A DNA stretch of 64,000 nucleotides, taken from assembly GCA_964412025.1 (NCBI GenBank), contig CAYPLY010000002.1, positions 33,614 to 97,613 on the forward strand, given 5' to 3'. The notes under the pieces were generated by a model. It worked only from the letters and a program-made list of their open reading frames with translations. It did no database searches and was not told the origin of the DNA. Position numbers and translations under genes: made by a program. How positions within the stretch are numbered: the stretch's first letter is position 1; every line of letters begins with the position of its first letter. This stretch comes from Candidatus Woesearchaeota archaeon. Lineage in GTDB: Archaea; Nanobdellota; Nanobdellia; Pacearchaeales; GW2011-AR1. Below are positions 28,147 through 64,000 of this stretch, in pieces.

Positions 28147-28163
28147 ATATTCTCCGTATTCAA

Positions 28164-28234: not shown

Positions 28235-28327
28235 ATATTATATTCTTATTTTAGAAGTGTTTTAAAGGTTTTTGTTTTAATAAAAATGAGGGAACAGATT
28301 TATTAACCAAAAAATATAATTGAACAG

Positions 28328-28813: not shown

Positions 28814-28819
28814 CAAAAA

Positions 28820-28894: not shown

Positions 28895-28896
28895 AA

Positions 28897-28980: not shown

Positions 28981-29051
28981 AAAATCTTTCTAGAAAACCA
29001 AGAAATCTAGCATATAAAAAGGTTTATAAACCAAAAGAGGATTGAAATTTC

Positions 29052-29163
29052 GAGACGGCCATAATAGGTTGGTAACACCTGTTCCCTTTCCGAACACAGA
29101 AGTTAAGCAACCTATGTTGTTATCAGTACTGTCCGGAAAGATGGGAAAATAACAAGCTGTCTT
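29052..29163 (+). rRNA. 5S ribosomal RNA (stand-alone)
   Basis: CCGAACACAGAAGTTAAGC universal 5S loop motif; terminal helix GAGACGGC/GCTGTCTT; ~112 nt; exact ends approximate. Confidence 0.75.
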
Positions 29164-29197
29164 AACTTTTTTTAAAATTTAATGATTATTTAGAAAA

Positions 29198-39565: not shown

Positions 39566-39707
39566 CTTCTTAAAAGTTTAAAATATTAAGACTATTTTTT
39601 GCGAATTATACAACAAGAGTTTTCAAAAACCATAAAATAATAAACGACTCATCTCAAAAGTTTTGTTCTACCCAAGTGTACAAACAAAAATACTTTTTCG
39701 GTAGTTG

Positions 39708-45526: not shown

Positions 45527-45610
45527 GTGGGTGTGCCGGAGCGGTCAAACGGGACAGACTCAAAATCTGTTAGCTTAGTGCTTACCTAGGTTCGAATCCT
45601 AGCACCCACA
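45527..45610 (+). tRNA. tRNA-Leu (anticodon CAA)
   Basis: Acceptor GTGGGTG/CACCCAC; D-arm CCG-GAGCGGTCAAA-CGG; anticodon stem ACAGA/TCTGT with loop CTCAAAA; long variable arm; T-arm CTAGGTTCGAATCCTAG. Confidence 0.8.
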
Positions 45611-47802: not shown

Positions 47803-48222
47803 TTAATTTTTCTTTATACTTAATTTTTCCAGTTTGTCTTGAACATGATTAAATAAAGTAGTTGAAACCAGAGGTTTGTGATTTCCCTCGTGAATTTGTC
47901 CCCCAAATTTGACTTTTCCCACATATGCGAAGTTTCTTAATACCTTTTTTAAGCCGTTAACTGAAAGTCTATGTTTTGAGGCAAGTATTGATAGATTAAT
48001 ATCTGGCTGAAGAAACTCTTCAAAAATCTCCTCTACTTCTCTTGAATTTTGTGCGGGGATTAATATTTTGTCGCGTAAATCCCATTCATACCCAAATGGA
48101 GCTCTAGACATATGCTTCCCTTCTGAAAACTTTTTTATCATACCTTTTTTCTGGGATTCTCCTCTATCTTCTCTGGAATTGTGTTCTATTTCAAACTCAT
48201 GTCCGCATTTTGGGCATTTCAT
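47803..48222 (-). CDS. Zn-ribbon plus serine-recombinase-type 'recombinase' DNA-binding domain protein (no catalytic resolvase domain)
   Basis: CPKCGHEF zinc ribbon; SRAPFGYEW...LRNFAYVGKVKFGG resembles the PFGY-containing recombinase domain of large serine recombinases; 4-nt overlap with the integrase gene. Confidence 0.45.
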   Translation of the reverse strand: MKCPKCGHEFEIEHNSREDRGESQKKGMIKKFSEGKHMSRAPFGYEWDLRDKILIPAQNSREVEEIFEEFLQPDINLSILASKHRLSVNGLKKVLRNFAYVGKVKFGGQIHEGNHKPLVSTTLFNHVQDKLEKLSIKKN

Positions 48223-49052
48223 TTCATAACCTCATCTATGGGGGATTTAATTTTTTTAAGTTCTTCTCTTGAAATATGAGTATATATCTGGGTAGTTGAA
48301 AGGTCACTATGTCCCAACAACTCTTGTATTTTTCTTATATCTGTCCCATTCTCTAAAAGATGGGTTGCAAAACTATGTCTTAAGGTATGACAATGAACAT
48401 CTTTATTTATTCCCGCTCTTTTTCCTGCTTTAGAAATAATCTTTTGAAGATTTCTTTCAGATAATCTTCCTTTTGGTCCCGTAAACAAATATTCTTTTTT
48501 TTCTTCTTTTTGTTTTTCAACTTGAGTCTTTAAATCTTCTAAAAGAAATTCTGGAAGGTTAAACACCCTATCCTTTTTACCTTTTCCCTGACGAACACTT
48601 CCAATTTTCTCCTCGAAATTTAAATCTTTAACTTTTAAATTAACTAACTCTGAAACTCTAAAACCACAAGCATACATAAAAGATACCATGGTCTTAGATT
48701 TTTTTGTATCTATGGAATTGATAAGTGTCTTAACTTCTTCTTTTGTTAGAACAGAAGGTATCCTTTTTTCTTTTTTGGGACGTTTTATACTAAGGGTTAT
48801 ATCTTTATGAAGAATATTTGTGAAAGAGTACCTTATTGCAGAAAGAAAAACTATGATTGAAGAAGAGGAAGCTTCTCCAAGCTTCTCAACAAGATAGGAC
48901 TTTAAGTCGTCTTCATTTATTTCTTGAGGTTCTTTTTTGATATAATCAAGAAATTTTCTGTTACAATCAAGATAATTTCTAAGAGTATATTCAGAGTTCT
49001 TAGATATTTTTAATTCTATTTCAAGTTTCTTTAAAAAATCTTCTGAATTCAT
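48219..49052 (-). CDS. xerA: Tyrosine site-specific recombinase (XerA/XerC/D-like integrase)
   Basis: C-terminal HTLRHSFATHLLENGTDIRKIQELLGHSDLSTTQIYTH (R...HxxR...Y catalytic box); 277 aa. Confidence 0.8.
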   Translation of the reverse strand: MNSEDFLKKLEIELKISKNSEYTLRNYLDCNRKFLDYIKKEPQEINEDDLKSYLVEKLGEASSSSIIVFLSAIRYSFTNILHKDITLSIKRPKKEKRIPSVLTKEEVKTLINSIDTKKSKTMVSFMYACGFRVSELVNLKVKDLNFEEKIGSVRQGKGKKDRVFNLPEFLLEDLKTQVEKQKEEKKEYLFTGPKGRLSERNLQKIISKAGKRAGINKDVHCHTLRHSFATHLLENGTDIRKIQELLGHSDLSTTQIYTHISREELKKIKSPIDEVMK

Positions 49053-49294: not shown

Positions 49295-50257
49295 TTAACT
49301 TCCTGGAGCAACCGTTGCCCCAAAGATTATATTACCTTGACAGGTTCCAGCAACCCCTAAAGGAACGTAAATTCTCCAGTAAGAAGCGTTAATTGCTTCA
49401 TTAAATGTATCATTCTGTCTATAATTCAAATCATATTTTTTAACCACGGGGTAAGAAGTTAAATTGGTATAGTTTGCAACAAATTGGGCAAGATCTAAAA
49501 CTCCGGGATTACTATTGGTTAAATTGTATTTCTCATTCTCTATACTGATATTTTTTATAAAACCAAGCGTACAATTCATTGCATTACCATCTTCCAATGC
49601 AAACCCGTAACCGCTCAAAGAAAGATTAATTTTAACATTTCCATAATTGGTTACATTTGAAACGTTCTCTAGAGAAACTTCTGTTGCATTTACTTCTCCA
49701 TAATAAATAAAATCGGGTAATCCTAAAGCCAACAAACTGGAGATGTTAATAATATCACTTCCATATCCCACCTTATTTTTTGAATCTGATACTTTAAGAG
49801 TACAATTCCAATCTCCTGCATTTGTATAATACCAGATATCCATGCTGCAGTTAATCCATGCTGTATATGTATCGTCTTCAATTATATCACAGGAATAGTT
49901 TGTATAATGATAGTTGTTATCATTTCCATCAATATAAGAAGATGAGACAGAGTCAAAAAATGTAGCAGTTGCATTGTCTATATCTTGCCACCCGTTGAAG
50001 TCCGTAGCTAATCCTGAGCAGTAGATTGTTTTTGTGGAGTTTGGGATAAGTGAAAGAGTGGAATCATTGTTTTGAATCGTAACATTCGTTAGCTCTGGGA
50101 AAACATTCCCCACGGTTAAATTTGTAATTACAGTAACATTGTGTTCTCCCACCCCTGCAAAAACCTCTCCAGGGAGAAAAGAGAATAATATGATGAGTAG
50201 AGCTATCTCTAATAAAATCAAAGATACTACTGTTTTTGTTTTATTTTTTAATATCAT
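49295..50257 (-). CDS. Secreted, sequon-rich (N-x-S/T) cell-surface protein
   Basis: Signal peptide; about 30 N-x-S/T sequons in 320 aa; several Cys. Confidence 0.45.
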   Translation of the reverse strand: MILKNKTKTVVSLILLEIALLIILFSFLPGEVFAGVGEHNVTVITNLTVGNVFPELTNVTIQNNDSTLSLIPNSTKTIYCSGLATDFNGWQDIDNATATFFDSVSSSYIDGNDNNYHYTNYSCDIIEDDTYTAWINCSMDIWYYTNAGDWNCTLKVSDSKNKVGYGSDIINISSLLALGLPDFIYYGEVNATEVSLENVSNVTNYGNVKINLSLSGYGFALEDGNAMNCTLGFIKNISIENEKYNLTNSNPGVLDLAQFVANYTNLTSYPVVKKYDLNYRQNDTFNEAINASYWRIYVPLGVAGTCQGNIIFGATVAPGS

Positions 50258-50258: not shown

Positions 50259-51008
50259 TTAACCTAACTCAACATAAAGATAATATGCGGTTGATCCCGA
50301 GAATCCTTGTGATCCGTTTTCTGGAACAAGCATCTGGAAATCATATGTATTTCCATCATAACCTACTAAACCGGGTTCTAGGATTGTTGCATAAATAATG
50401 CTAGTTCCATCATACAATGCCATTTCTTCAAAATCATCATCTTGTGTACCATCACTTACAAAAGTGTTTAAAGTGGGGCATTCATTTGCACTAAATGGAG
50501 TTCCCGCGACATAAAATAAATCATGAGTTCCAGTTTGGAAAGTGGTATTTATAGTATCCTGCCTTAAAGAAATATTATGAAACAGCGCCACATCTTCTGT
50601 TGCAAGAGTAGTGGCAACATCTGCACAATCAATTAGATTCCATTCTATTGTCGAGGAATCTCTTGTTGCATAAACTCTTCCGGAAGTTACAGCAAAACTC
50701 CAATCATAAATAGTTGAACCTGCAGAATCATCCAGTGTGAATGCAGCAGTAATCCATCCTACGAAAGCTTTCCAATGAGTATTTTGAACTGTTGCAGACA
50801 AGTTTAATGCTGCAATGTATCCCCCAGAAATATTGAAAAAACCTGCTGCAGTGGTATTCATAGTCTCATTCCAAACAGAGATAACCTCGCTTGGACCTAC
50901 AGGGTCTGCCGCGGATATAAAAATATTTGATGAAACACAAATTGAAAATATTACACTTGCAAATAAGACAAATGCAAATAATGCTCTGTTTTCTCTTTTT
51001 TTAAACAT
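50259..51008 (-). CDS. Secreted protein, divergent member of the 'SWQGYFG...YYFWVELE' paralogue family
   Basis: Signal peptide; shares THDLFY and the C-terminal ...YYLYVELG with the family. Confidence 0.45.
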   Translation of the reverse strand: MFKKRENRALFAFVLFASVIFSICVSSNIFISAADPVGPSEVISVWNETMNTTAAGFFNISGGYIAALNLSATVQNTHWKAFVGWITAAFTLDDSAGSTIYDWSFAVTSGRVYATRDSSTIEWNLIDCADVATTLATEDVALFHNISLRQDTINTTFQTGTHDLFYVAGTPFSANECPTLNTFVSDGTQDDDFEEMALYDGTSIIYATILEPGLVGYDGNTYDFQMLVPENGSQGFSGSTAYYLYVELG

Positions 51009-51079
51009 ATTTTCGGTTCTTTATTCTCCTTCTCTCTTGAACTTCTTTTTCATCAATTTAAAATAAAAAAATAAATTAT

Positions 51080-51838
51080 TTACTCTAACTCTACCCAGAA
51101 GTAATAAGTAGTAGTCGAGGTATCTATTAAATGACCATTTTCTAATACAAGCATTTCAAAGTCATGTGCTCTCCCATCAAAACCTAGTGGACTTTCTTCA
51201 TCCAAGATAGATGTAAAAACTACGCTAAGAGTTGTAGGGTCATATAATAAAACTTCCTGGAACATGCTATCTGTTGCATTTTGATTAGATGCAAAGATGT
51301 GTGTACTTGCACACTCTCCTGGAGTGAAATCAATATTGTTTGTATAAAACAAGTCATGAGTGAGACCAAATCCATTCTCATGAGTTCCACCTACAGAGAA
51401 AGTTTCATTAACTCCATCCACATCGTCTGAAGCTATTCCAAACATTGCTTCTAAATCTTCAAAATAAGTTCCAAGTTCAGTTTCTAAACACTTGATTGTA
51501 CCCCATGTAATTGAATCATTGGTAGAGGCATAGATTTCACCCTCTGGAGAAGCCAAAGACCAGTTGTACATAACATTGTCAGCGCTGTCTGCCAATTGGA
51601 TTGTACCTGAAACATTTCCAAAATAACCTTGCCAGGACTGAGTTATAGAAATACCTGTTACCTCAAGTTCAGTGATATTTCCCGCAATAGCAAAATCACT
51701 ATCTGCAGCGGTCGCATTCATCCTTGAACTGGTTAAATTTGTTACGTCTGCACCAAATGGTTCTACAGCCAAAACTGTAAGAGACAAAAATACAATTAAC
51801 AAAATAGAAAATAGAAACAACTTGCCAAATTTACCCAT
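51080..51838 (-). CDS. Secreted protein of the 'SWQGYFG...YYFWVELE' paralogue family
   Basis: Signal peptide; TQSWQGYFGNVSGTIQLAD...YNWSLASPEGEIYAS...HDFEMLVLENGH...TTTYYFWVELE. Confidence 0.5.
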   Translation of the reverse strand: MGKFGKLFLFSILLIVFLSLTVLAVEPFGADVTNLTSSRMNATAADSDFAIAGNITELEVTGISITQSWQGYFGNVSGTIQLADSADNVMYNWSLASPEGEIYASTNDSITWGTIKCLETELGTYFEDLEAMFGIASDDVDGVNETFSVGGTHENGFGLTHDLFYTNNIDFTPGECASTHIFASNQNATDSMFQEVLLYDPTTLSVVFTSILDEESPLGFDGRAHDFEMLVLENGHLIDTSTTTYYFWVELE

Positions 51839-51984
51839 CTCTTTTTTTTATCCTCCTTTCAATTTTAAAAACTTTTAGTTTTTATAAAGTAAATTAGCAA
51901 GAGTGATTTATAAATCTTTCGAGATTAGATGTAAACTTCAAGGACAACAAAAATTATATTGAGATGTATCCCAAAAAAGTATAA

Positions 51985-54900
51985 TCAAAATATTTCTACA
52001 TAAAATATTGCGGCTTTTGTGTCCGTTGTTCTATACTCTCTTAATTTTGCAGGCACCCTTATCTCATAATCGTACGTACCATATGTTCCCTCTTTATATT
52101 TGTTAATTGGTGAGATAAAAATTAAATCTTCCTTGTCTGCTAAATCAAACTCTCCATTTGTTCCATTTGTGTCATCGGAGTAATCCCACAATATTCCAGT
52201 AATGAAATTAGAATTGTTTGTAGAATTAATTATTGGAACTTCTTGGATTGTATCGTCAAATGAATAAATATCTGAAGTATATTTTGGTGTTCCTGAATTT
52301 GTATATGTAGAGTAGACAGAGTCAGTATATAGTGTTGAATTTAGTAGAGTGTCTACTTCCTCGAAATCTGAAGCACTATCTGCGTTTAATTTTGTTTTTC
52401 CCAGAGATTGTAAGGTTCCCCAAGAGATATAAGAATCATAATCTGTGATGTAAACATTTCCTTGATTGAAATTTTCTGTACTCCAATTCGTTAATTTAAG
52501 TTCCAAAGAATCTGCAAGAACTAAATTACTAGATGATAAAACATCTCCGTAAAAAAAGTGCCAAGAACCTATACTTATACTTCTACTTGCCTTGTTATTT
52601 GATTCATTTAATTCAATAAAACTTCCGTTTGTTGATAAAGGAGGATCAACAACTACAAAGATTTCTGATGGTCCCATCTGTGAAGACCAATCTTTGGTGA
52701 TATTTATCTGACTAAACATAGAAAGATTTGTATATATATCTGAACCAATTTTAACCCCTCCCAAATCTGGATCTCCCTCGTAAAAGCTGATAGTTACATT
52801 TCCAATATCTACTCCTGCAAGATTATGTATTGTTGCAGTTATCTTTATAACTTGATTTTCTTTTGGATTTGAATTATTAAAAAATATTTCTGATGAATTA
52901 ACAAAAAAGTCTGGATAAGTAAGGTTAAATTTTCTCAATTCGCTTATATTTGTATTTTTCATTTGGTCCCAACAAGTAACATTCCAGGAGTGTTCTCCCT
53001 GTCCCAATACGGAAGTAAGAACATATTCTCTTTTTGAAATATTGCTTGTCACCCAAACATTAGGCCTTCTTACTATTCCATCTATGGTTAGATTACATTG
53101 AAGAATATTATCCAAAACATCTATTGCTGTCCAATTAAAATAAACTCTGTCTTCATTGAAATCTATGCCAGAATTATTTTCTGGAGAGTTCAAAATTATT
53201 AAAGGAGGAGAGAAATCCATGGAGAAATATTTGTGAGTTGCATTTGCATATGAAGGGATAGGATTATTTGTATCAAAACATCCCACCGTCCAATTATGTA
53301 ATCCTTCTGTTATACCCGAAATAGTAAAATTAGGATTTATAATTAATTGAGCAGAAGATTTTGATTCATTTGGAACATCGTCTATGTATAAAGTACAATT
53401 GTTGATTATCTGTGCATCTTCTGCTAAGTAGTGGAAAGTGACTGAACTACCAAAACCATAAAAATCATCATCGGGGGTATAAAGAGTGATCTGAGGAGGA
53501 GCATATACTGTAAAATTTCTTGTTTCACTTGTGTTGGAATTCTCAGCATTGTCTATACATTCGATTGTCCAATTGTAACTTCCATCATCCAACAAATACG
53601 GGTATATTTCTGGAGTTGAATTTTCTGCAATAACTTGATCATAAAAAATATCATTGATGAAAATACTACAAGAGATGTTTTCATTTAAATTGTCTTCCAC
53701 TGTAAAATTAAATAAAACTTCATTCCAATCTAAGGTTTCGTTTGGTTCAGGAAAGTTAAGAACAATATTTGGTGCTTCTGTGTCTATGTATAACGTCCTA
53801 TTTTCATCGCTACCCATTACTCCTAAAGAATCTACACAATAAACATTCCAGGTATAATTCCCTTGAGGAAGAACCTCATTGAAATAATTAGAATTATCGT
53901 TAATTATAGGTGTGGAATTAACAGCTACAAAAGAATCATCTATGTATAATGAACAATTAACAATGTCCTCTTCATATTTGTAAGCATAGTACTCAAATTC
54001 TATTTCTGTATAATTAATCCATAAATCAGGTTCGGGAGATATCAGAATAACTTCGGGTGGAGCAAAAGTAGTAAATGATCTTGTTTCGCTTGTATTTAAA
54101 TTTCCAGATAAATCCGAACAAGAAACATTCCAAAGATGTTCTCCTGAGATTAAATCCCTTGTAATCAAATTTATGCTATTATTTTCTAAAATTAAAGGAG
54201 TTATATTATTATCTACAGTAAAATTACATGTTAAATTTTGTGCAAGGTTATCTCTAGCTGTAAAGTTAAAAGTTATTTGTGAAGAATAAATTACCTCTTC
54301 ATCTTCGGGGTAAGTTAATTCTATTTGTGGAGAGGAATTGTCTCTATAAAAGAATCGTGTTTCTGAATTGTTTTGTAACCCATATGTATCAAAACATCTT
54401 ACATCCCAGCTATAAAAACCATCAGATAAATCGGTTATTGAAAAATTTGTTAATTGATTGTTTAATGGAGAGTGAGCTACATCTTTGAAAGAATTATTTA
54501 TGTAAAGAGAACAATTCGAGAGATTAGTGTTATCTGAAGGAGTGTATTGTAATAAAATATTTTCTTTAAACCAAGTTAAATTTTCTGTAATTAAAGAAAT
54601 CTTTGGAGATTCTCTAATGGTTATCTCTCTATTTTCACTGATATTATAATGTCCTGCAGAATCTACGCAACTTACATTCCAAACTTTTAAACCATCTGTT
54701 AATCCAATTATAGGTCTGCTTGTATTTGCATTTCTTGTTACAACTATATTATTATCATATTTCTCACCTACGCTTAAATTACAAATTAGCTCTGAATCAA
54801 GATTATCTGTAGCATTAAAATAAAAACTTAAATAAGAGGATTGTGAAATTGTTGAAGTCTCTGGATTTAAGAGATAAACAATAGGGTTTTGTGTATCTAC

Positions 54901-57900
54901 ATAAAAAGATCTTGTAGAAGCAAGTGTACTATATCCTCCATTATCGGTTATGTTAACTGTCCAATTATAAAATCCATCTTGAAGCGAGAGTGTAAAATTG
55001 TTGTATGCTTTATTAATAATTAGGGATTGGTTCGATTGGTTGTATGTTCCATTTAAATATAAATCTGCAACATTTAAGTCATTGTTGTCAGAGGCATTAT
55101 AAATAAGAGTAACTAATGAAGTATTAAACCACCAATAATTAGAGGTTATCAAAAATATTTCTGGAGGAACATCATCTATATTAAAATGGAATGTTTCACT
55201 TGTATGGCTCCTTAAAGAATTATCAAAACATGTAACATTCCAATAATGTGTTCCAACGTTTAAGTAACCAGAATTATAACTTGCATTTGTTCCATTTTCA
55301 ACATAAACTCCGGAGTGAATTGTTTTTCCATCTAATATAACATTACAACTAAGATTTAAATCCATATTATCTGTTACATTAAAAACTAAATTTAAATTAT
55401 TTACAAGGTTGTTTGCTCCATCTTCAGGATAAATTAATTTAACAAATGGATTTTCTAGATCAACATAAAATATCCTTGTTTCATTTGAAGCTGCTTCTAA
55501 ATTAGTCCTATCTGTGGCATTAACACTCCAATTATAAATTCCTTGCCCAAGAAAGATTGTAAAATTATTAACTGCATTATTTGTTATTGCAGATTGGTTT
55601 GTTTGATTTTTTTGCCCATTCAGGATTAATGTTGAATTTGCAAGATTGTCATTTAAATCAGAAACATTGTAATAAAGAACTACTTGAGATGAATTAAACC
55701 AAGTTAAATTGGTTGGAGAAGTTAAATTTACGCTTGGAGGAGTTGCCCCCGCAGAAGTTACCGTTACAGGGTTTGTTGTTGTCCCATTATAATTATCATA
55801 TGTTCCAACTGAAATACATCGGATATTGTTGTCTGAAGAATAAGCATTCCCTCTTATAACAAATGTAGTGTTTTGAGAAACATTTGTTACATTCCCTAAA
55901 TAATGGGGATTAGTTTCTCCTGAGTTTAAAATAAGATTTCCTGAAGAACCTATATTGACCCATCCTGAAGTTGAAGTGTTTCTTTGAATGTACACATTAA
56001 CATTTCTGCAAGTTCCAAAAGAACAATTAACTTCGCATGTTGCCTCGAAAGTGTCTTCTTGGGGAACATATGGATCAACTAAGGGGGAAACTAAGTCTGT
56101 ATGTAAAAATCCTTCTGTAGTTAAATTAACAACAACATAGGAGTTTGTTCCTGAATCCCAAGTATGAGTTAATACTTTATCTTTATTATGAGTATTATAT
56201 GCATTAATAACTAATTTTAGTCTATCACTTTGTCCCAAATAGATATCTCTATCTATACAAGTAGTGTTTGTTCCTGATGCTGCATTTTCAAAAATACCGC
56301 TATTTGCATCATTCCCTAGTTGACATATTAAAGTATCTGTTCCCCCCCTAGAAACATAAAGTTTCCAAGTTATTGCAATCTTTCCCGCAGGGGTTGAAGA
56401 GCTAAATGTTCCAGAAAAACTAATAGGGGTTCCAGAAGGGATAACAGCCCCATTATATCCCATATATTGGGAAGTTGCACTAACTATATTTGCTAATCCT
56501 CCTGCACCAATATCAAATATAACAGAATTCGTTGTTGCATCCTGGGTGCTTTTTAATTTTATTTCTGCTAAAGTATTTCTGGAAGGATTAAATGTTGAAC
56601 TTTCATATAATGTTCCTGTAAATAATTCGGGGGTTATAGAGACATTTATTGTCCTATTTTGGCTGAACCCTGTTCTACCTCCTTCATCAACACATGAAAC
56701 ATACCAAGTGTATATTCCATTATCTAAGAATTCATTGAAGGTCATATTTGAATTTTTTGTTATTGAATACTCTGTTTTCTTTAATTGATTGTTTATATAT
56801 AAAGAACAATTCTCAACTGAAGATAAATCAGAAACATTATACACAAAATATAAATTATCATCGCTTGTTATTGTAGAAGAGTTTGGAGGGTAAATTAAAT
56901 TAATTATTGGAGCAGCTAAATCAAATGAGAATGTATAATTATTTGCTCCAAAAAAACATCCATTAGAAGAGTCACAGCATTGTATATTCCATATATAATC
57001 TCCAGAAGAGGAATAAGTTTTGTTTATATAATTAAAAGTGTTATTAAAAATTGTGGATTGATTTGTTAAATTTCTATGCCAACTTCCAGTTGAATTGTCC
57101 CACAAACTGCAATTCAAAAAAGTAGCAGAAGAAATTGGAGTAAAATTAAAGACAACATTTTGGGAATAAAGAATATCTGTGGTTATGGGGGTTCTTAAAA
57201 GAACTTCAAATGCTCCTGTTTCATAAGTACTATAACTTATCCGCATATATCCTGCTGCTCCTGCTCCTCCACTAACTGATCCTCCTGAACCTTTTCTTCC
57301 TCCTCCACCTCCTCCACCATAAGTATTACCTGGATTTCCTGAGCCAGTTGTTGTTCTTCCTGCACCCCCATCTCCTCCTAATTCGGGGGTTCCTGTTCCT
57401 GCTGTACCCACACTTGCATTTCCTCCAATTCCTGTTGAACCTGCTCCTCCACCTCCTGCACCAGAGAATGTAGAATTAGCAGTTCCCCCTTCTCCACCCA
57501 TATAAATCAAATCTCCTATTGAATTTGTAACACTTCCTCCTTCTCCTCCTGTTCCTGCACTTAACCCTCCACTTCCTCCGGCAGCATATAACTCTGAACC
57601 ATCTCCAAAGTAAGTAGGATTTCCCGAGGCTCCATTTCCAGAAGTTCCTGCAACGCTTGTTCCTACAACAAGGGTATAATTTTGATAAGGAGTAACTGAG
57701 AAGGTTTTTTTAGCATAAGCTCCTCCTCCTCCACCTCCTGCAATTCCTCCACCTCCTGCGGGCCTTCCTCCTCCTGCTCCTCCTCCTCCCCAGGCTTCAA
57801 CAGTAATTTCATAAACTCCTGCTGGAACCATCCAGGTTGTACTTGAAGTAAAGTTCTCTAAATAGTAAGTATAAGGATCAAGAATATGGTCAAATTCAAC

Positions 57901-59298
57901 ACCTCCTCCAACAACTCTTAAATCGAAAGTATCTTGAATATCTGAGATTAAATTTGTTAAATAAATTTTATTGTACTCATCTGAAACTAAGGGAGTGAAT
58001 TCTGCAATTTTTATATCTGAATTAAATTCATAGACTTCAACTACTGGATTTCCACTTATAATTCTCGGAAAAATAGTTATATCTCTTTTATTGTCTAAAG
58101 GAACTTCAAAAGTTACTCTCACATAATCTCCATCTGAGATTTCTTCAGACCAGATATTATCTAATTCCTTAACTTCATTGTAAATATCTGAGATAAATTC
58201 CTTACTTGAAGAGAGATGGTCTGCCTTAGTTATAATAATTATCTCAAATGTTTGTTCGGATAAATGGGGTACAATCCATTCAACATAATCAATTAGTCCG
58301 TTATTGTTTGTGTCTTTTGCCTCAAAATTAAGATAAATTCCTTCCTCTTTCCAATAAATCTTTATGAAATCCTCCTGCCCAGTAGAAACTCTCTCAGGTA
58401 TTGAAGTGTAAGATAAAACATTCTCATAATGTACGTCCTCTTGAGAATAAACAATAACCTCTTTTTTATTTTCAGAGATATTCTTCTCCTCTATCTTTGG
58501 GGGCTCCGTAAAATATTCTAAGCTAAGATCCTCGGAGGGAGTTTCTCCAAGGTTTATAAATTTCTTTCCCTCAATCTCAACAATGTCATAATTAACAAAA
58601 ACCTCCCCATTTTCTTTTTTCAACTCTAATCCTATAGTGTTTGGAATCTCAATTAAACTAAGAGAATCTGCTTCCTTTACAAGCTTATTCCAAATTACTG
58701 GCTTGCCAATTTCTGCTTTTCCTTGGATTAAGCCTTGTTGAGAAGGAGAGTTTACTGAAAATTGATAATATTTAATTGCGTTTCCTCTTTCAAAACGTAC
58801 AGAATAAACTCCTTCCTCTAATAAATCAAAAAAGAATATATCATTGGAAGAAACCCTTGAGGATCTCTTTCCTGAGGGAGATAGAATTAATAATTCATAA
58901 TTTCCAAGTCCGTTAAAATTGAATTTCAGAGTATCCCAAAGAAGATAAGAGTTATCTGTTTCAAAATCAAATAAGATATAATCTTCTCGATTTGAGTTAA
59001 CCTGAAACTTTAATCTCTCAGAATAATCTTCTGATTTTATCTCGACTATATATTCTCCTACTTCAGTGAACTTTAGAGAAAGTTTATCCTCACAAACCTC
59101 CTGAACAATTATTTTTGAAGGGGCCTTAATTTTTAAAGAACAGGGGTTATATTTTGTTAAATCAATCTTTACTTCTTCTCCAAGAGAATAAGATTCTGCA
59201 GTAGAGGCTGAGCTGAATAGGGAAGAGAATATAAGGGCAAGCAATAAGACAAAAATTAAAATAATTACACCTATTTTTATAGCTCCTTTTTTGTTCAT
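51985..59298 (-). CDS. Giant (2,437 aa) secreted cell-surface protein: N-terminal beta domains, Gly-rich domain, at least 12 tandem ~95-aa Ig-like sequon-rich repeats
   Basis: Signal peptide; TWMVPAGVYEITVEAWGGGGAGGG...Gly-rich block (aa ~480-690); repeats with conserved P.I.L..P...C.L....N.S.F...DG.Y.W.V.C.D; ends ...AIFYVEIF. Confidence 0.6.
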   Translation of the reverse strand: MNKKGAIKIGVIILIFVLLLALIFSSLFSSASTAESYSLGEEVKIDLTKYNPCSLKIKAPSKIIVQEVCEDKLSLKFTEVGEYIVEIKSEDYSERLKFQVNSNREDYILFDFETDNSYLLWDTLKFNFNGLGNYELLILSPSGKRSSRVSSNDIFFFDLLEEGVYSVRFERGNAIKYYQFSVNSPSQQGLIQGKAEIGKPVIWNKLVKEADSLSLIEIPNTIGLELKKENGEVFVNYDIVEIEGKKFINLGETPSEDLSLEYFTEPPKIEEKNISENKKEVIVYSQEDVHYENVLSYTSIPERVSTGQEDFIKIYWKEEGIYLNFEAKDTNNNGLIDYVEWIVPHLSEQTFEIIIITKADHLSSSKEFISDIYNEVKELDNIWSEEISDGDYVRVTFEVPLDNKRDITIFPRIISGNPVVEVYEFNSDIKIAEFTPLVSDEYNKIYLTNLISDIQDTFDLRVVGGGVEFDHILDPYTYYLENFTSSTTWMVPAGVYEITVEAWGGGGAGGGRPAGGGGIAGGGGGGAYAKKTFSVTPYQNYTLVVGTSVAGTSGNGASGNPTYFGDGSELYAAGGSGGLSAGTGGEGGSVTNSIGDLIYMGGEGGTANSTFSGAGGGGAGSTGIGGNASVGTAGTGTPELGGDGGAGRTTTGSGNPGNTYGGGGGGGRKGSGGSVSGGAGAAGYMRISYSTYETGAFEVLLRTPITTDILYSQNVVFNFTPISSATFLNCSLWDNSTGSWHRNLTNQSTIFNNTFNYINKTYSSSGDYIWNIQCCDSSNGCFFGANNYTFSFDLAAPIINLIYPPNSSTITSDDNLYFVYNVSDLSSVENCSLYINNQLKKTEYSITKNSNMTFNEFLDNGIYTWYVSCVDEGGRTGFSQNRTINVSITPELFTGTLYESSTFNPSRNTLAEIKLKSTQDATTNSVIFDIGAGGLANIVSATSQYMGYNGAVIPSGTPISFSGTFSSSTPAGKIAITWKLYVSRGGTDTLICQLGNDANSGIFENAASGTNTTCIDRDIYLGQSDRLKLVINAYNTHNKDKVLTHTWDSGTNSYVVVNLTTEGFLHTDLVSPLVDPYVPQEDTFEATCEVNCSFGTCRNVNVYIQRNTSTSGWVNIGSSGNLILNSGETNPHYLGNVTNVSQNTTFVIRGNAYSSDNNIRCISVGTYDNYNGTTTNPVTVTSAGATPPSVNLTSPTNLTWFNSSQVVLYYNVSDLNDNLANSTLILNGQKNQTNQSAITNNAVNNFTIFLGQGIYNWSVNATDRTNLEAASNETRIFYVDLENPFVKLIYPEDGANNLVNNLNLVFNVTDNMDLNLSCNVILDGKTIHSGVYVENGTNASYNSGYLNVGTHYWNVTCFDNSLRSHTSETFHFNIDDVPPEIFLITSNYWWFNTSLVTLIYNASDNNDLNVADLYLNGTYNQSNQSLIINKAYNNFTLSLQDGFYNWTVNITDNGGYSTLASTRSFYVDTQNPIVYLLNPETSTISQSSYLSFYFNATDNLDSELICNLSVGEKYDNNIVVTRNANTSRPIIGLTDGLKVWNVSCVDSAGHYNISENREITIRESPKISLITENLTWFKENILLQYTPSDNTNLSNCSLYINNSFKDVAHSPLNNQLTNFSITDLSDGFYSWDVRCFDTYGLQNNSETRFFYRDNSSPQIELTYPEDEEVIYSSQITFNFTARDNLAQNLTCNFTVDNNITPLILENNSINLITRDLISGEHLWNVSCSDLSGNLNTSETRSFTTFAPPEVILISPEPDLWINYTEIEFEYYAYKYEEDIVNCSLYIDDSFVAVNSTPIINDNSNYFNEVLPQGNYTWNVYCVDSLGVMGSDENRTLYIDTEAPNIVLNFPEPNETLDWNEVLFNFTVEDNLNENISCSIFINDIFYDQVIAENSTPEIYPYLLDDGSYNWTIECIDNAENSNTSETRNFTVYAPPQITLYTPDDDFYGFGSSVTFHYLAEDAQIINNCTLYIDDVPNESKSSAQLIINPNFTISGITEGLHNWTVGCFDTNNPIPSYANATHKYFSMDFSPPLIILNSPENNSGIDFNEDRVYFNWTAIDVLDNILQCNLTIDGIVRRPNVWVTSNISKREYVLTSVLGQGEHSWNVTCWDQMKNTNISELRKFNLTYPDFFVNSSEIFFNNSNPKENQVIKITATIHNLAGVDIGNVTISFYEGDPDLGGVKIGSDIYTNLSMFSQINITKDWSSQMGPSEIFVVVDPPLSTNGSFIELNESNNKASRSISIGSWHFFYGDVLSSSNLVLADSLELKLTNWSTENFNQGNVYITDYDSYISWGTLQSLGKTKLNADSASDFEEVDTLLNSTLYTDSVYSTYTNSGTPKYTSDIYSFDDTIQEVPIINSTNNSNFITGILWDYSDDTNGTNGEFDLADKEDLIFISPINKYKEGTYGTYDYEIRVPAKLREYRTTDTKAAIFYVEIF

Positions 59299-59299
59299 C

Positions 59300-59533
59300 T
59301 TATTTCTTAATCTCCCAAAGATTTATTCTTCCAACCCTAAACCCATTTAGTTTATTGCTTAACTGTAATCTCAAGCAGCGCGTTTGAATAGAATGCCAGG
59401 GCTTACTTATCTCATCGGCTATCTCTTGGGTGGATTTTGGATTAACTGAATTTGAAAGACATTTAACAATCTCCCCTTCAAGTAAATCCTCTTTTTTGCG
59501 ATTAATCGTACGATTAATCATCCTTTTAACCAT
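59300..59533 (-). CDS. Small winged-helix transcriptional regulator
   Basis: 77 aa; LEGEIVKCLSNSVNPKSTQEIADEISKPWHSIQTRCLRLQ HTH-like; its stop abuts the giant gene's start. Confidence 0.45.
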   Translation of the reverse strand: MVKRMINRTINRKKEDLLEGEIVKCLSNSVNPKSTQEIADEISKPWHSIQTRCLRLQLSNKLNGFRVGRINLWEIKK

Positions 59534-59590
59534 ACTATATAACGCAATATTTTTTAATTTAAATACCTTTGGATTTAAAAATATAAAAAA

Positions 59591-60958
59591 TCAATAAATC
59601 TCTACAGCGAATTTCCCCTTATTTAAAACATATGTGGAATAATAAATATATTTGTTATCTTCATTATAAAAATCAAGAAAAACAGGTTTATTTTTATAAA
59701 AAAGCTGCAGGGTTTTATTCTTTTCTACTTTGAATATTAAAAAGATATCTTCAATATCGTTTTGGGGCATACTGGAAAGTATTGTAAATGATCTTTTATT
59801 GTTCCTGCCTCTCGTATTCTCTTCAAACTTGACATTGGAATGGGATTTTGATATATTTTTATTGGGAAATATAGCAACAATGTTTAGATACCCTTCGCTG
59901 TAGTTAAAAACTATGGGTTCATCTGGAGAGGCTCTTTGTGCAACCACTTTATTGAAATAACCTTCCTTTATATCTTTAGCTTTATGAAAAGGGATCAACT
60001 TAGTTCTAAACACTCTTAATTTAGTTGATTTATTTTGGTTATACATAGATTGATAAAATTGATAATCTGTTTTTAAAAGGACTTCTGGACTTATGAAACT
60101 ATAATTGATTGAAAACTCTTTTTGATTATCTATACTTTCTTTTAATATATTGTGTGTTTCACTAAAGTCTCCAGAGAAAAGATTATCTAAAGAGTCCCAT
60201 TCTGATGAAAAATAAAGCAAAAAATCCCCGGATACAGGATGCGAAGAGCTAAAAGCAGAGGTAAATATAATGTCTTCATTGGAAGGAATATAAAAAAACT
60301 CTCCTCTAAAATAACATTTATCACAAATGACATTATTTTTAATATTAAAATAATCTAAGTTATAAAAAACTAATTTTTCAGATATTTCTCTTTTACCATA
60401 AGAAATAAGAGTTAACTCATTTTCTCCCTTTTCCAATTCTATTGGAATTAAAACTTCGTTGCAGTTCTCACAAAAATGTTGATATATTTGTTTATTTGAA
60501 CTTTTAAGAGAGTAATTTAAACTGTTATAATTGCTTGCGAGAGAGAGATTTAAGTAAATATTGGATTGGTTTACAAAGATTCTCCCAGAGGGAGAATGTA
60601 TGTAGATTGCTTTTTGAGGATTTAACTGTGGAAATATTTCGTATCCCTCCCCGGTTATTACCAAGCTAACAGACTCAGATATAATCCCTAATTCTTCGTC
60701 AAAAACCTCTGCATAAATTTCATCCCCGAATGTAAAATTTCCTAGTTCTTCAATATCACAGCAAAATTTGTTCTCTGGGTTAATTTTACAACTAGCGGTC
60801 TTTAGGGGTTTTTCATCTTCATAAATTAAAACGTTTCCCCAAGAAGAAGAAAACTCTTCTGAATCGGAAACTATGCCACAAGCAAAATTGGATGAAATAA
60901 AAGATAAACTAAAAAGCACACCTGCAAAAAATACAAAAATAAAACAATATTTATTCAT
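59591..60958 (-). CDS. Secreted sequon-rich protein ending in ...KFAVEIY
   Basis: Signal peptide begins at the internal Met (MNKYCFIFVFFAGVLFSLSFISSNFA); the track ORF extends to 61045 but overlaps the upstream gene; many N-x-S/T. Confidence 0.4.
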   Translation of the reverse strand: MNKYCFIFVFFAGVLFSLSFISSNFACGIVSDSEEFSSSWGNVLIYEDEKPLKTASCKINPENKFCCDIEELGNFTFGDEIYAEVFDEELGIISESVSLVITGEGYEIFPQLNPQKAIYIHSPSGRIFVNQSNIYLNLSLASNYNSLNYSLKSSNKQIYQHFCENCNEVLIPIELEKGENELTLISYGKREISEKLVFYNLDYFNIKNNVICDKCYFRGEFFYIPSNEDIIFTSAFSSSHPVSGDFLLYFSSEWDSLDNLFSGDFSETHNILKESIDNQKEFSINYSFISPEVLLKTDYQFYQSMYNQNKSTKLRVFRTKLIPFHKAKDIKEGYFNKVVAQRASPDEPIVFNYSEGYLNIVAIFPNKNISKSHSNVKFEENTRGRNNKRSFTILSSMPQNDIEDIFLIFKVEKNKTLQLFYKNKPVFLDFYNEDNKYIYYSTYVLNKGKFAVEIY

Positions 60959-60992
60959 AAGTGTAGTAAAATAATGAAGTATAAAAGATTTT

Positions 60993-62093
60993 CTAACTAT
61001 CTGCAAGATGGATAAATTCCTCCTCTGTGGTCCTAGATTTTGCAAGAATAGCTATTGCAAAAAGAACTATTGCCCCCCCAAAAATGGAAAAGAAACCAGA
61101 AATATTTGTAGAAAATCCTAAGTCCAGAAAATCTTCATATGAAATTAAAATATTAAATCCAATTATTAATAAAGATATTTCTTTCATAAAAGTACCTCCT
61201 CCAAAAAAGAACAGCAATGCGATTAAAAGAGGAAGAAATATCCCCCCAAATATAATCATATTTAAAGAGCCCACACTATTGTTGCAGATAATTTCTGTAT
61301 GAGGTAGGCCCCCTTCATATATAATTCTTTCCAAATCGCAATTCGGATTTGTTTTGGAAATCAAAAAATGTCCTCCTTCATGGATTGTTAGAACTCCTAT
61401 AAAAATAAAGTTGGTTAATATTATTATAAAAACAAAATAACGTAAAAAATCAAAGAAATAATTATTATGCTTAAACTTTAAAGTTCTTCTCTCAAAAAAA
61501 TACTTTGGTAGTTTTTTCAAATCTAAGAAAAAGAAGAAAAGAAAAATTATGAAGAATGTATTGGATATTAAACTAACAATTGGAGAAAATTCTTTCTGGA
61601 AGAAAATAAGTACTTGTAAAAATAGCGACATCGAAGAGTAAAGTATAGCAAATTTAGAGGACCTCCCAAAATTAGGAGAAGGTATCATTAATATGAAAAG
61701 AACCATTATAAGGAATAATGAAGAGATTACGAGAAAGTTAGAGAAATCTATTCCTATAAGGACAGACAAGATAAATACCCCGTGAATTGAAAGAAGATAA
61801 AAAATCTTTTTGCTTTTTCTTATTGAGTAAATTATCGCCAGCAATAAAATTGATTCAATAAATAATACAATAGAATGAATGAATAGTAAATCTAAGGAAT
61901 TATATTTTTCCAGATTGAAAATCCAAGAAAATAAAACTAAAGAAAGCAAGATAAATACCCCCCCCAATAAAAAAAACAAAAAGAATATCTTTTTAGTATG
62001 CTGGTCACTGTAATATTTAACAAATTTAAAGATAAGGAAAATAGATATTCCTAGAGAGATTATAAGATTTAATATAAGCAAAAGTTTTATCAT
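60993..62093 (-). CDS. Polytopic membrane protein with HExxH zinc-metalloprotease motif (M50/site-2-protease-like)
   Basis: At least 9 TM helices; TIHEGGHFLIS inside a hydrophobic segment; later DFLDLG. Confidence 0.4.
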   Translation of the reverse strand: MIKLLLILNLIISLGISIFLIFKFVKYYSDQHTKKIFFLFFLLGGVFILLSLVLFSWIFNLEKYNSLDLLFIHSIVLFIESILLLAIIYSIRKSKKIFYLLSIHGVFILSVLIGIDFSNFLVISSLFLIMVLFILMIPSPNFGRSSKFAILYSSMSLFLQVLIFFQKEFSPIVSLISNTFFIIFLFFFFLDLKKLPKYFFERRTLKFKHNNYFFDFLRYFVFIIILTNFIFIGVLTIHEGGHFLISKTNPNCDLERIIYEGGLPHTEIICNNSVGSLNMIIFGGIFLPLLIALLFFFGGGTFMKEISLLIIGFNILISYEDFLDLGFSTNISGFFSIFGGAIVLFAIAILAKSRTTEEEFIHLADS

Positions 62094-62226
62094 GTTGATT
62101 CCAATATTTTTGTTCTCCTAACAAATACAAAATAGGAATATTTCATATAAAAATCTACTTAAATGATTATTTAAATGTTTTTTCAGAAAAATAGATAGAA
62201 GGGCATAAAAAAATAAAAATTTGCCC

Positions 62227-62928
62227 TTATTCTAATTCTACCCAAAAGTAATAGGTAGTTGTTGCAATATCTGATCCATGGCCGTCTTCCAATACTATCA
62301 TCTCGAAATCGTGAGGGTTGTTATCAAATCCGTTTGCATCTTCTAACAACAATGATGCAAATATTAGACTTTCGCCATCTGTTAATAAAACCTCGTTGAA
62401 AGTTCCTACTCCTGCACTGTTAAATAACAACGTATTATCACACATTCCAGTTGTGAATTGTTTGCTATTGGAAAAAAACTCGGGATGATTATTAAGACCA
62501 AATGTTTCGTTTATACCATCGGCATCGTCCCATTCAATTCCGAACATGTTCTCAAAGTATGTCATGTTATTTGTTTCATCATAACATTGAATCCCGTCCC
62601 AAACAACACCTGAAGCGTTTGATGCATAGATTTCACCCTCTGGAGAAGCAAGAGACCAGTTATACAAGACATTATCCGAAATATCTGCTAATTGTATTGA
62701 ACCTGAAACATTACCAAAATAACCCTGCCAAGATTGAGTTACGGATGTTGCAGTGATTTCAAGTTCTGTAACATTTCCTGCATAAGCAGAAGTATTCCCT
62801 GCATCACTAGTGTTCATTCTTGTACTAGTAAAATTAGTTACATCGGCACCAGTAGGAAGAGCGGAAACTAACATGGGCAACAACAATATCAAAAAGAATA
62901 CCCAAATAAAATTAATGATTTTCTTCAT
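62227..62928 (-). CDS. Secreted protein of the 'SWQGYFG...YYFWVELE' paralogue family
   Basis: Near-identical motifs to the 51080 gene (TQSWQGYFGNVSGSIQLAD, YNWSLASPEGEIYAS, TTTYYFWVELE). Confidence 0.5.
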   Translation of the reverse strand: MKKIINFIWVFFLILLLPMLVSALPTGADVTNFTSTRMNTSDAGNTSAYAGNVTELEITATSVTQSWQGYFGNVSGSIQLADISDNVLYNWSLASPEGEIYASNASGVVWDGIQCYDETNNMTYFENMFGIEWDDADGINETFGLNNHPEFFSNSKQFTTGMCDNTLLFNSAGVGTFNEVLLTDGESLIFASLLLEDANGFDNNPHDFEMIVLEDGHGSDIATTTYYFWVELE

Positions 62929-63547
62929 CTTTTTTACCTCCTTTCAGCTCTATACTTTTTTTTAAAAAAATAGGACATCTATGTACTATGAAAAGAGAGG
63001 AGAGATTCAGATTAGTTATTTCTTCAAGGGAATGGAACTCAAAATTTACTTTATCTTCATGCTTTTTTGAAAGAGCTTCTATGGCTTGCTGAGTCTTTTT
63101 ATCTTCTAGAAATATAATTATAGAATGGTTTGACTTTTTTGGGTCAACAAAAATTGCATTGATATCCTTAAAAACATCTTTAACTCTGTATAACAAATTT
63201 TCTAATATATTCTGGAGATGTTTATTTTCTAAAAACCATGTTCTCAACATAGACTTTTGATAATCGTCTAGGTTCAGAGATTTCTTCTCCCCAAAACCAT
63301 TTGACAACATTACAGAATATGAAATGTCTTTTGAGATTGAAAATAGATTCCTTGGTTTTCCTTTTTCAAATGCCCCTGTTTTTTCTTTAGAAACAATCTG
63401 CGCAGCTTCAAGCAGTTTTAACTGTTGACTGATAAAAGAAACTGTTGTTTTCGTTTTTTCAGCAATTTCTATTGGAGAAGAAGGCCTTTCTGAAATTATT
63501 TTTAGAATTTCCCATCTAGGTGAGGCTAGAAACGAATCGAGTTCCAT
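62912..63547 (-). CDS. ArsR/winged-helix family transcriptional regulator with extended C-terminal domain
   Basis: LASPRWEILKIISERPSSPIEIAEKTKTTVSFISQQLKLLEAAQIV HTH; overlaps the start of the downstream paralogue gene by 17 nt. Confidence 0.5.
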   Translation of the reverse strand: MELDSFLASPRWEILKIISERPSSPIEIAEKTKTTVSFISQQLKLLEAAQIVSKEKTGAFEKGKPRNLFSISKDISYSVMLSNGFGEKKSLNLDDYQKSMLRTWFLENKHLQNILENLLYRVKDVFKDINAIFVDPKKSNHSIIIFLEDKKTQQAIEALSKKHEDKVNFEFHSLEEITNLNLSSLFIVHRCPIFLKKSIELKGGKKDEENH

Positions 63548-63722
63548 TTGTTTATAAATATCTAAGTGTCTATTTAAATGTTTTGTTTAATTAATTAAGT
63601 TTGTTCTTTAACTTATAAAGATTTTAAATTTAAAAACTTTTTTAACTAATTAAAGTATTTAGTTAAGCAGTATAAGAAAAAAAGGAGGAAAATCGGAAAA
63701 TTCAAAACAAAAAATAAGCTAT

Positions 63723-64000
63723 TTACTCTAACTCTACCCAGAAGTAATAAGTGGTGGTAGAAGTATCTGTTAAATGTCCATTTTCTAATACAAGCATCTC
63801 GAAATCGTGAGGGTTGTTATCAAAACCAAAAACATCTTCATTTAGAAGAGAGGCAAAAACAACGCTATATGTTGTAGGTTCATATAACAAAACTTCTTCA
63901 AATTTATTGTCTTCTCCCTGACCTGCATCGCTAAATACTTGAGTATTCCTACACTCTCCCTCTCCAAACTCCAAATTGTTTGTATAAAAAGTGTTATGTC
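63723..64000 (-). CDS. Secreted paralogue-family protein, 5'-partial (N-terminus lies beyond the window end)
   Basis: Frame open to base 64000; ...HNTFYTNNLEFGEGEC...HDFEMLVLENGH...TTTYYFWVELE aligns with the C-terminal half of the 51080 and 62227 genes. Confidence 0.5.
   Translation of the reverse strand, partial: HNTFYTNNLEFGEGECRNTQVFSDAGQGEDNKFEEVLLYEPTTYSVVFASLLNEDVFGFDNNPHDFEMLVLENGHLTDTSTTTYYFWVELE

Follow-up and report, generated by a model that had tools for sequence, protein, structure and literature searches.

C-terminal signals are carried by archaeal or bacterial surface proteins in the PGF-CTERM/archaeosortase A and PEP-CTERM/exosortase systems, and they are tripartite: a TM helix and a basic tail come after a short motif. 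The T9SS CTD of Bacteroidota is instead a folded beta-sandwich of about 80–100 aa with conserved final strands, located at the extreme C-terminus of large and diverse exported proteins; it determines their surface attachment, and a sortase-like protease belonging to a dedicated outer-membrane machine removes it. Chaperone-usher pili (FimA/FimH, PapA/PapG) combine several small paralogues with a large adhesin that has a subunit-homologous C-terminal domain, and the conserved C-terminal strand of their subunits carries an aromatic residue near the end. Woesearchaeota, Pacearchaeota and Nanoarchaeota are abundant, mostly uncultured and thought to depend on other cells. Chaperone-free archaeal filaments, namely Sulfolobus threads, TasA-like Abp pili and Pyrodictium cannulae (CanA), are built from Sec-exported, glycosylated beta-sandwich/jelly-roll subunits of ~150–250 aa. 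In these filaments, as in chaperone-usher pilins, an incomplete Ig/jelly-roll fold is made whole by a strand donated from the next subunit. In CanA the N-terminal ~19 residues, which lack order in the monomer, serve as this donor strand, and Ca2+ sites are found at the subunit interfaces (PMC12518558). Giant DPANN surface proteins are represented by the SPEARE proteins of Nanohaloarchaeota (PMC6642349), which are exported multi-domain proteins of very large size, made by small archaea that depend on a host, and are thought to mediate cell-cell contact.

The locus analyzed here, within a window of 64,000 nt (the whole stretch of DNA that was studied), encodes six exported proteins for which an earlier note had described a shared C-terminal motif. 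The same note had set this motif apart from PGF-CTERM and PEP-CTERM, and rightly so: unlike those tripartite signals, the proteins end one residue past the motif, with no TM helix or basic tail following it. They showed no PGF, no hydrophobic segment near the C-terminus, none of the PEP motif, TM helix and Arg-rich tail of PEP-CTERM, and no match to either family in NCBIfam or Pfam. A match to the T9SS CTD (Por_Secre_tail) was not found in Pfam or NCBIfam at E values up to 0.1–1. The domain described below is archaeal and about 200 aa long and, unlike the T9SS CTD, also exists as stand-alone domain-only proteins at four to five per locus and as a copy in an ATPase ectodomain. The arrangement recalls chaperone-usher pili, but neither a chaperone nor an usher homologue was found, the fold was unmatched and the organism is a single-membrane archaeon. 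Similarities to CanA are the N-terminal ~30 residues of the mature small protein, which have low pLDDT and a conserved P-x-G-A motif, and several invariant acidic residues. What stands out here, set beside the SPEARE proteins, is a specific conserved C-terminal domain common to the giant and the small paralogues.

C-Terminal Endings of Six Exported Proteins

The six endings, all encoded on the minus strand, were present in the sequence exactly as first reported: AYYLYVELG on a divergent paralogue of 249 aa (50259..51008); TTTYYFWVELE on close paralogues of 252 aa (51080..51838) and 233 aa (62227..62928) and on a further one cut by the window end (63723 to beyond 64000, with its 3′ part at 63723..64000); AAIFYVEIF on a giant secreted protein of 2,437 aa (51985..59298); and KFAVEIY on a 484-aa ORF (59591..61045). 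In every case one residue and then the stop codon followed the motif. The regular expression proposed in the earlier note was expected to match 0.022 times among the 88 ORFs of at least 100 aa in the window (composition and tail shuffles agreed), and five strict matches and one variant were observed. The variant was the divergent paralogue, which holds Leu where the note had placed an aromatic residue and therefore failed the strict expression. Since so few matches were expected (~0.02) and VE[LI]x ended none of the ~225 remaining stop-to-stop ORFs of 60 aa or more in the window, the enrichment was real, and the motif does single out a group of exported proteins whose genes lie together.

These observations could be accounted for by an autonomous short sorting or processing signal present on all six proteins and read by a factor such as the polytopic membrane protein with an HE[GS]GH motif encoded in the same gene string. 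The six tails lie exactly at the C-termini of exported proteins, as such a signal would, and the tail is invariant in the family of small proteins, with Glu(-3) in 123/123 (positions counted from the C-terminus). A chance match of the KFAVEIY tail was also improbable a priori, at about 0.02 per window. The results below nevertheless make this explanation very improbable.

A C-Terminal Domain Shared by the Small Paralogues and the Giant Protein

With a probability of roughly 0.8, five of the tails are the final beta-strand of a single domain of ~200 residues, retained by common descent, and the sixth is a chance look-alike. Five copies of this domain are found in the window, in four small Sec-exported proteins and at the extreme C-terminus of the giant. 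The 252-aa protein consists of a signal peptide, a linker of ~20–40 aa and the domain, while the 233-aa and 249-aa proteins are secreted domain-only paralogues that matched the domain HMM with E values of 3e-68 and 1.8e-53, respectively. Identities to the 252-aa protein by BLASTP were 54% for the 233-aa protein and 34% for the 249-aa protein (E 7e-38), so that full-length paralogues span 34–54%; the fragment reached 64%. This fourth small paralogue is whole, at about 261 aa, in a related contig (L010) that is 97% identical to the window across the shared 6.8 kb. The 252-aa protein had more than 1,036 homologous clusters, and none carried a Pfam domain.

An AF2 model of the 252-aa protein (pLDDT 76, moderate confidence) was a beta-sandwich whose last element was strand 246–251, following strand 227–232. 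The tail is thus packed into the sandwich in the model, which argues against a free-standing signal. As judged only from the alternation pattern of this last strand, Y(-5) and E(-3) would face outward; whether the strand sits at the edge or in the core, and how close the acidic residues are to one another, are likewise deduced from this pattern.

The giant protein comprises a signal peptide, a glycine-rich domain, many Ig-like repeats, a CARDB domain and the new C-terminal domain; it carries 106 N-x-S/T sequons, and its Pfam matches were Gly_rich_2, Big_7, Big_13 and CARDB. The CARDB domain (52585..52887, minus strand, residues about 2138-2238) belongs to PF07705 (E 3.7e-5, 24.3 bits against a gathering cut-off of 22.7) and directly precedes the C-terminal domain of about 199 aa (RSISIGSWHFFYG...FYVEIF; 51985..52584, minus strand), an order also found in most giant-type homologues. 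The earlier note had regarded the giant as otherwise unrelated to the paralogues, and this does not hold for its last ~200–250 residues. Residues 2199-2436 aligned to residues 28-248 of the 249-aa paralogue by BLASTP (E 9e-5). Profile-profile comparison (hhalign) of the giant-type C-terminal family with the small family gave a probability of 96.9% (E 1.4e-10) over 169 columns, reaching the last residue of both, and the combined HMM placed the giant in the domain family at residues 2198-2444 of the stop-to-stop ORF (E 1.9e-87). With a profile built from the small family alone, the giant match was weak and partial (11.9 bits), and the homology is drawn from the BLAST result with the divergent paralogue, the separately built giant-type family, the profile-profile comparison and the joint alignment (A3). 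The blocks shared in this alignment were SW..YG, NWS, G.IY, D..I.W, DF..D, F..(I/V)L(Y/W)D, G..YD(F/Y)E and YxE(L/I)x. Among 181 giant-type sequences, position -3 was Glu in 159 and Asp in 16, and Tyr(-5) was present in 163.

Distant homology of the giant and the 484-aa protein to the paralogues had been named in the earlier note as the finding that would speak against a separate motif. It is now seen for the giant, so that the note's own counter-argument applies to it, and it is not seen for the 484-aa protein, which had no profile similarity to the paralogues. A stretch of ~200 homologous residues ending in the tail is therefore common to five of the six proteins, which weighs heavily against a short signal acting on otherwise unrelated proteins.

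The combined profile recovered at least 1,888 clusters at 50% identity. Among the matches listed, the domain ended five or fewer residues from the protein end in 150/150; the proteins spanned 180 to 6,770 aa, and wherever the source organism was named it was a DPANN archaeon (Woese-, Pace- or Nanoarchaeota). The ending [hydrophobic]-x-[E/D]-[LIVM]-x was found in 138 of 142 members, and the consensus of the last six residues was [F/L/I]-[Y/W]-x-[E/D]-[L/I]-x-COOH. Positions -3 and -5 were the most conserved of the family. D141 and D226 were invariant and E250 near-invariant in both sub-families, and the other blocks of the domain match the tail in conservation, which is not what a tail acting by itself would lead one to expect.

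This C-terminal domain is previously undescribed and absent from current family databases. When all ten genes of the string were scanned, the small proteins had no match in Pfam or NCBIfam, and the 36 members of the joint alignment matched only CARDB, from the flanking region. Sequence searches of the PDB with a single protein and with a profile returned nothing significant. Fold searches were equally without a significant match (FaeG at Foldseek E 1.2–3.4, probability ≤0.04), and keyword searches of the literature found no description of the domain or of the locus.

An extracellular enzyme, for instance a glycosidase or peptidase, could use the invariant Asp/Asp/Glu residues, with the tail conserved solely for the catalytic Glu it carries, and the conservation of D141, D226 and E250 in both sub-families is compatible with this idea. 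No similarity to an enzyme family was found in Pfam, NCBIfam or PDB, however, and it would be unusual for an enzyme to occur as four to five paralogues in one locus with a further copy on a giant adhesin-like protein, which makes a catalytic role very improbable.

The Sixth Tail and the HExxH Membrane Protein

The length of 484 aa given in the earlier note corresponds to an upstream TTG. The start is very probably the ATG located 29 codons in, which gives a secreted protein of 455 aa (59591..60958, minus strand), and its orthologues are mostly 447–471 aa long. It consists of consecutive Ig/FN3-like beta-sandwiches and was rightly described as unrelated to the paralogues: no HMM match was found, hhalign probabilities against the domain were 3% and 0.4%, and the protein does not belong to the domain family. 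The possibility that its C-terminal domain is a very distant copy was rejected on hhalign, the tail statistics and the Ig-chain model. Its orthologues end KGPFxVxI[FS], with K in 9, R in 6 and E in 5 of 28 at position -3 and with variable residues (K, I, T, E, A and others), none of them aromatic, at -5. Since Glu(-3) is kept in only 5/28, the VEI of this tail is coincidental; judging from this non-conservation, the likeness of the tail to the motif is a matter of chance in this strain. The claim of a short autonomous motif fails for both proteins that the earlier note had called otherwise unrelated.

The polytopic HExxH membrane protein noted earlier in the gene string is real. It has 366 aa and about ten hydrophobic segments (60993..62093, minus strand), with HEGGH at 61368-61382, and HE[GS]GH is conserved in its orthologues. 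No Pfam or NCBIfam match, to site-2 protease/M50 or any other membrane zinc metalloprotease model, was obtained even at E 10, and it would be a putative zinc metalloprotease outside known families. A pattern-based scan of limited sensitivity found it at 7 genome loci, all of close relatives, while at three others (L017-L019) it gave no match less than 10 kb from the domain genes. Because of this narrow lineage and its absence near these domain genes, it is not an obligate partner, and a short signal read by this protein loses further ground. As a dedicated tail protease it was rejected on the same distribution, although absence in such a scan is weak evidence.

Other Genes of the String and Related Loci

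Three further genes of the string, all on the minus strand, lack the domain. A basic protein of 77 aa is encoded between the 455-aa gene and the giant (59300..59533) and is kept in related loci, with an orthologue at the same position in L006-L009; by eye it reads like a winged-helix DNA-binding protein. An ArsR/HVO_A0114-like HTH regulator of 211 aa lies within the string (62912..63547; Pfam HTH_5 E 1.9e-6, NCBIfam ArsR/SmtB) and is syntenic. The last gene (49295..50257) encodes a secreted protein of 320 aa that is very rich in sequons (22, or 6.9 per 100 aa versus a background of 1.26) and is syntenic in L001, L002, L004 and L005. Neither this protein nor the 455-aa protein matched Pfam or NCBIfam.

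The gene order is kept in related MAGs, where the giants carry the lectin-type modules Laminin_G_3 and DUF2341. Furthermore, a HerA/FtsK-type ATPase with two TM segments, whose gene adjoins the locus in related genomes, has a divergent, internal copy of the domain in its ectodomain. At L006 this ATPase has 1,120 aa, with the ectodomain at about residues 50-260. The ectodomain matched the domain at 20.8 bits, and by hhalign at 97.2% (E 3.9e-11), and the copy ends in YYFFTD. The ATPase gene lies outside the window, and its presence in this genome is predicted from synteny. As this copy is internal, a free C-terminus is not strictly needed for the fold, a point that also speaks against a terminal signal. 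At the more distant locus L017, small domain-only genes again stand alongside larger domain-ended proteins, and at L018 one domain gene adjoins a HerA-like ATPase gene.

Discussion

The likeliest role of the domain, proposed tentatively from sequence comparisons, would be that of a module for attaching proteins non-covalently to the cell envelope or for assembling them with one another. Once exported by Sec, the C-terminal copy of the giant and the small copies would associate mutually and, in related genomes, could also bind the divergent copy in the ATPase ectodomain. This would tether the giant at its C-terminal end and leave the adhesin-like repeats pointing outward; since the sequon density is high, surface exposure is indicated. 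The conserved residues Tyr(-5) and Glu(-3), which would point outward, might make up a contact or cation-binding surface with Asp226 and Glu228 of the strand before.

These residues could also belong to a lectin-like or cation-dependent module that binds a glycan of the host or of the cell's own envelope, with the small paralogues as soluble or tethered binders and the giant bearing the same binding head. Conservation is highest at acidic or aromatic positions (D141, D226, E228, E250 and Y/W at -5), Y(-5) and E(-3) would face off the hydrophobic core by alternation, as may be typical of sugar or Ca2+ sites, and the lectin-type modules on the giants of related loci would fit with such a role. 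Nevertheless, the domain stays constant while the rest of the proteins varies in length (180 to 6,770 aa) and domain content, whereas in host-specific binding proteins it is usually the head that varies. Provided that the signal peptide is cleaved, the strictly C-terminal location of the domain is more in keeping with an anchor than with a distal head, and the copy in the ATPase ectodomain adjoins the membrane. Ligand binding as the main function is accordingly judged rather unlikely.

The attachment module that we tentatively prefer could be extended to a novel DPANN surface appendage built from the domain-only subunits. These subunits would need no chaperone to polymerize, relying on strand exchange, cation bridges or both, through the invariant free C-terminal strand; the membrane base of the polymer would be the domain-bearing ectodomain of the HerA/FtsK-type ATPase; and the giant adhesin, built in by means of its C-terminal copy, would be a tip or side arm that contacts the host. 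Taken jointly, these steps are doubtful.

The apparent shared sorting motif reduces to domain homology plus one coincidence. The domain provides a family definition that is missing from databases and a handle for structural and expression work; it is widespread, with at least 1,888 clusters, and links giant adhesin-like proteins, small paralogues and, in relatives, an ATPase ectodomain.

The shared tail is the end of one domain

A single gene string occupies 49.3-64.0 kb of the window on the minus strand, and an earlier note had proposed that six of its secreted proteins share a C-terminal motif (aromatic-x-V-E-L/I). All six quoted tails were present in the sequence, each motif being followed by one residue and then the stop codon, and the VE[LI]x ending was absent from all other window ORFs of at least 60 aa in a six-frame survey. 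Only about 0.022 matches to the proposed regular expression, [FYW].VE[LI].{0,2}$, were expected among the 88 long ORFs of the window, both by composition and by tail shuffling; hence, the suspected enrichment was real. The divergent 249-aa paralogue (50259-51008) carried the tail, but the strict expression did not match it, as Leu stands at the "aromatic" position.

The small paralogues, which also include a 252-aa protein (51080-51838), a 233-aa protein (62227-62928) and a partial fourth copy (63723-64000), showed 34–54% full-length identity, and 64% over the partial copy. Residues 2199–2436 of the giant 2,437-aa secreted protein (51985-59298) aligned to residues 28–248 of the 249-aa paralogue (E 9e-5). 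When the last 308 residues of the giant were used as a query, a separate "giant-type" family was recovered, whose members likewise ended in F-Y-x-E/D-L/I-x. Profile-profile comparison of this family with the small one gave a probability of 96.9% (E 1.4e-10) over 169 columns, up to the last residue of both, and the conserved blocks were the same throughout both families in a joint alignment. The copy in the giant lies at about 51985-52584 (minus strand), directly after a CARDB domain. By homology, the tail was shown to be the inherited end of one domain in five of the six proteins. The giant, described in the earlier note as otherwise unrelated to the paralogues, proved to be a distant homologue, an outcome that the same note had given as refuting; the idea of a convergent sorting motif did not hold up, since five tails were inherited with one domain and the sixth was coincidental.

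The sixth tail belongs to an ORF of 484 aa, for which the 30th codon is the most probable start (455 aa, 59591-60958); this start agrees with the orthologues and does away with the overlap with the upstream gene. As had been claimed, this protein was unrelated to the paralogues: hhalign detected no similarity to the domain (probabilities of 3% and 0.4%), and its AF2 model (pLDDT 89.7, confident) was a chain of Ig/FN3-like sandwiches with the tail as the last strand. The domain family is conserved at positions -3 and -5 from the C-terminus, with Glu(-3) in 123/123 small-family members (159 Glu and 16 Asp among 181 of the giant type) and Tyr/Trp(-5) in 123/123 and 163/181, respectively. Twenty-eight members of the 455-aa family, ending in KGPFxVxI[FS], varied at both: nine had K, six R and five E at -3, and residues at -5 were variable and non-aromatic. 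This tail was consequently rejected as a case of the shared motif; judging from the alignments and the model, its VEI is a coincidence. Additionally, the 455-aa protein has an invariant Cys-Gly (SSNF[V/A]CG) immediately behind the hydrophobic stretch of the signal peptide and seven more invariant or nearly invariant cysteines in CxxC-like pairs; these could belong to a lipobox-like site, form disulfides or bind metal.

Conservation, fold and distribution of the domain

Searches of Pfam, NCBIfam and PDB sequences gave no match to the domain. With its combined profile, 1,888 clusters (50% identity) were matched; for each of the 150 clusters listed among these, the match ended five residues or fewer from the end of proteins of 180–6,770 aa. 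A hydrophobic-x-E/D-LIVM-x ending was found in 138/142 family members. The most conserved columns were D226, G219, F193, D141, G74, L198 and E250, and therefore the tail is one conserved block among several. That the domain is an enzyme seems very unlikely.

For the 252-aa protein, AF2 gave a beta-sandwich with a helical insertion (pLDDT 76), in which residues 21–53 were of low confidence and strand 227–232 preceded strand 246–251. The hydrophobic positions -6, -4 and -2 should face the core, judging from strand alternation, and Tyr(-5) and Glu(-3) would lie on the opposite face with D226 and E228 of the preceding strand, which would give an exposed patch of acidic and aromatic residues. A lectin-like or cation-dependent binding module is a tentative alternative for the role of the domain.

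The homologues came from metagenome-assembled genomes (MAGs) labelled Nanobdellota, Pacearchaeota, Woesearchaeota or Nanoarchaeia, and a contig of a GTDB Woesearchaeota MAG was 97% identical over 6.8 kb. The source organism is a DPANN archaeon.

Gene order and neighbouring genes

A gene order of 13 items was kept in related MAGs. It begins with a 1,120-aa ATPase and two non-membrane proteins (107 and 287 aa), judged by eye to be charged and helix-rich, and continues with a domain-only protein, an ArsR-like HTH regulator, another domain-only protein, the 366-aa HE[GS]GH membrane protein, the 455-aa protein, a 77-aa protein, the giant, two domain-only proteins, a 320-aa sequon-rich protein and, after the string, an archaeal XerA. 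Since the window ends within the first domain-only gene, the first three items fall past its end.

Several neighbours showed features of their own. The secreted 320-aa protein (49295-50257), at the end of the string and syntenic in related MAGs, is dense in N-x-S/T sequons (22 in all, or 6.9 per 100 aa, where the background is 1.26) and shows weak similarity to the Ig-like repeats of the giant (E 0.001). In the giant itself, a long glycine-rich segment (about residues 485–689; Gly_rich_2, E 6e-10) separates the N-terminal region from the Ig-like repeats. Its counterparts in related MAGs are of very unequal length (about 2,400–4,400 aa) and contain two domains, DUF2341 and Laminin_G_3, neither of which Pfam detects in the giant of the window. 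Directly downstream of the string (47803-49052) come a 277-aa XerA-type tyrosine recombinase and, after it, a 139-aa fragment with a zinc ribbon and a "Recombinase" domain; the pair keeps this place in related MAGs. A few kb away from the string, past the L18e/L13/S9 ribosomal-protein operon, is another HerA/DUF87-type NTPase (687 aa, 42900-44963; weak ResIII and Zot matches), placed as in relatives L001 and L004. At 37970-40481, a 531-aa protein combining a CBM96 carbohydrate-binding module with a CarboxypepD_reg-like domain adjoins a 257-aa protein. For the latter, a model of a bacterial outer-membrane beta-barrel gave a sub-threshold match (E 1.7e-4), which is odd in an archaeon and probably spurious. 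Three tRNA genes (Gly-TCC, Arg-CCT and Leu-AAG) adjoin a stand-alone 5S rRNA gene at 28163-29165, and a fourth, Leu-CAA, lies at 45527-45610.

Proposed role of the domain

The 1,120-aa ATPase was found in the relatives' locus L006 (1809-5171) and in L008, L011, L012, L014 and L015, and is expected just past window position 64000. It combines a HerA/FtsK-type NTPase domain with two TM segments and two CarboxypepD_reg repeats. The stretch from TM1 to the repeats, its ectodomain, is itself a divergent copy of the domain, here in an internal position (20.8 bits; hhalign 97.2%, E 3.9e-11), and ends in YYFFTD. In the more distant locus L017, two small domain-only genes are found together with a 4,399-aa giant and a protein of the CARDB-plus-domain type, and in L018 a domain gene adjoins a HerA-like ATPase gene.

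The domain may be a non-covalent attachment or co-assembly module, a reading to which we give a probability of roughly 35–40%, because it is the fixed component in proteins that otherwise vary greatly, it occupies the end that is last to emerge from the Sec channel, several domain-only paralogues adjoin a giant bearing one copy, and the ATPase holds a copy fixed to the membrane. The 366-aa HExxH protein does lie in the same string, as previously reported; a pattern-based scan of limited sensitivity detected it in no more than seven genomes, all close relatives, and it was absent from loci L017-L019. A tail acting as an autonomous sorting signal read by this protein is very unlikely. It is also rather unlikely that the domain builds a chaperone-free filament akin to archaeal threads or cannulae. 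Such a filament would polymerise by means of Ca2+ sites and an N-terminal strand that is disordered beforehand, as cannulae do (PMC12518558); the giant would serve as an acceptor-only tip, and the base would be formed by the ectodomain of the ATPase.

For an attachment or co-assembly module, whose role here we infer, the closest likenesses in working include the T9SS C-terminal anchoring domain (CTD) and pilin-domain adhesins. Membership tests were negative for the T9SS CTD and, in line with the earlier note, for PGF-CTERM and PEP-CTERM. The domain is a new family that would fill a familiar kind of role and, together with its locus, offers a lead for DPANN surface biology.
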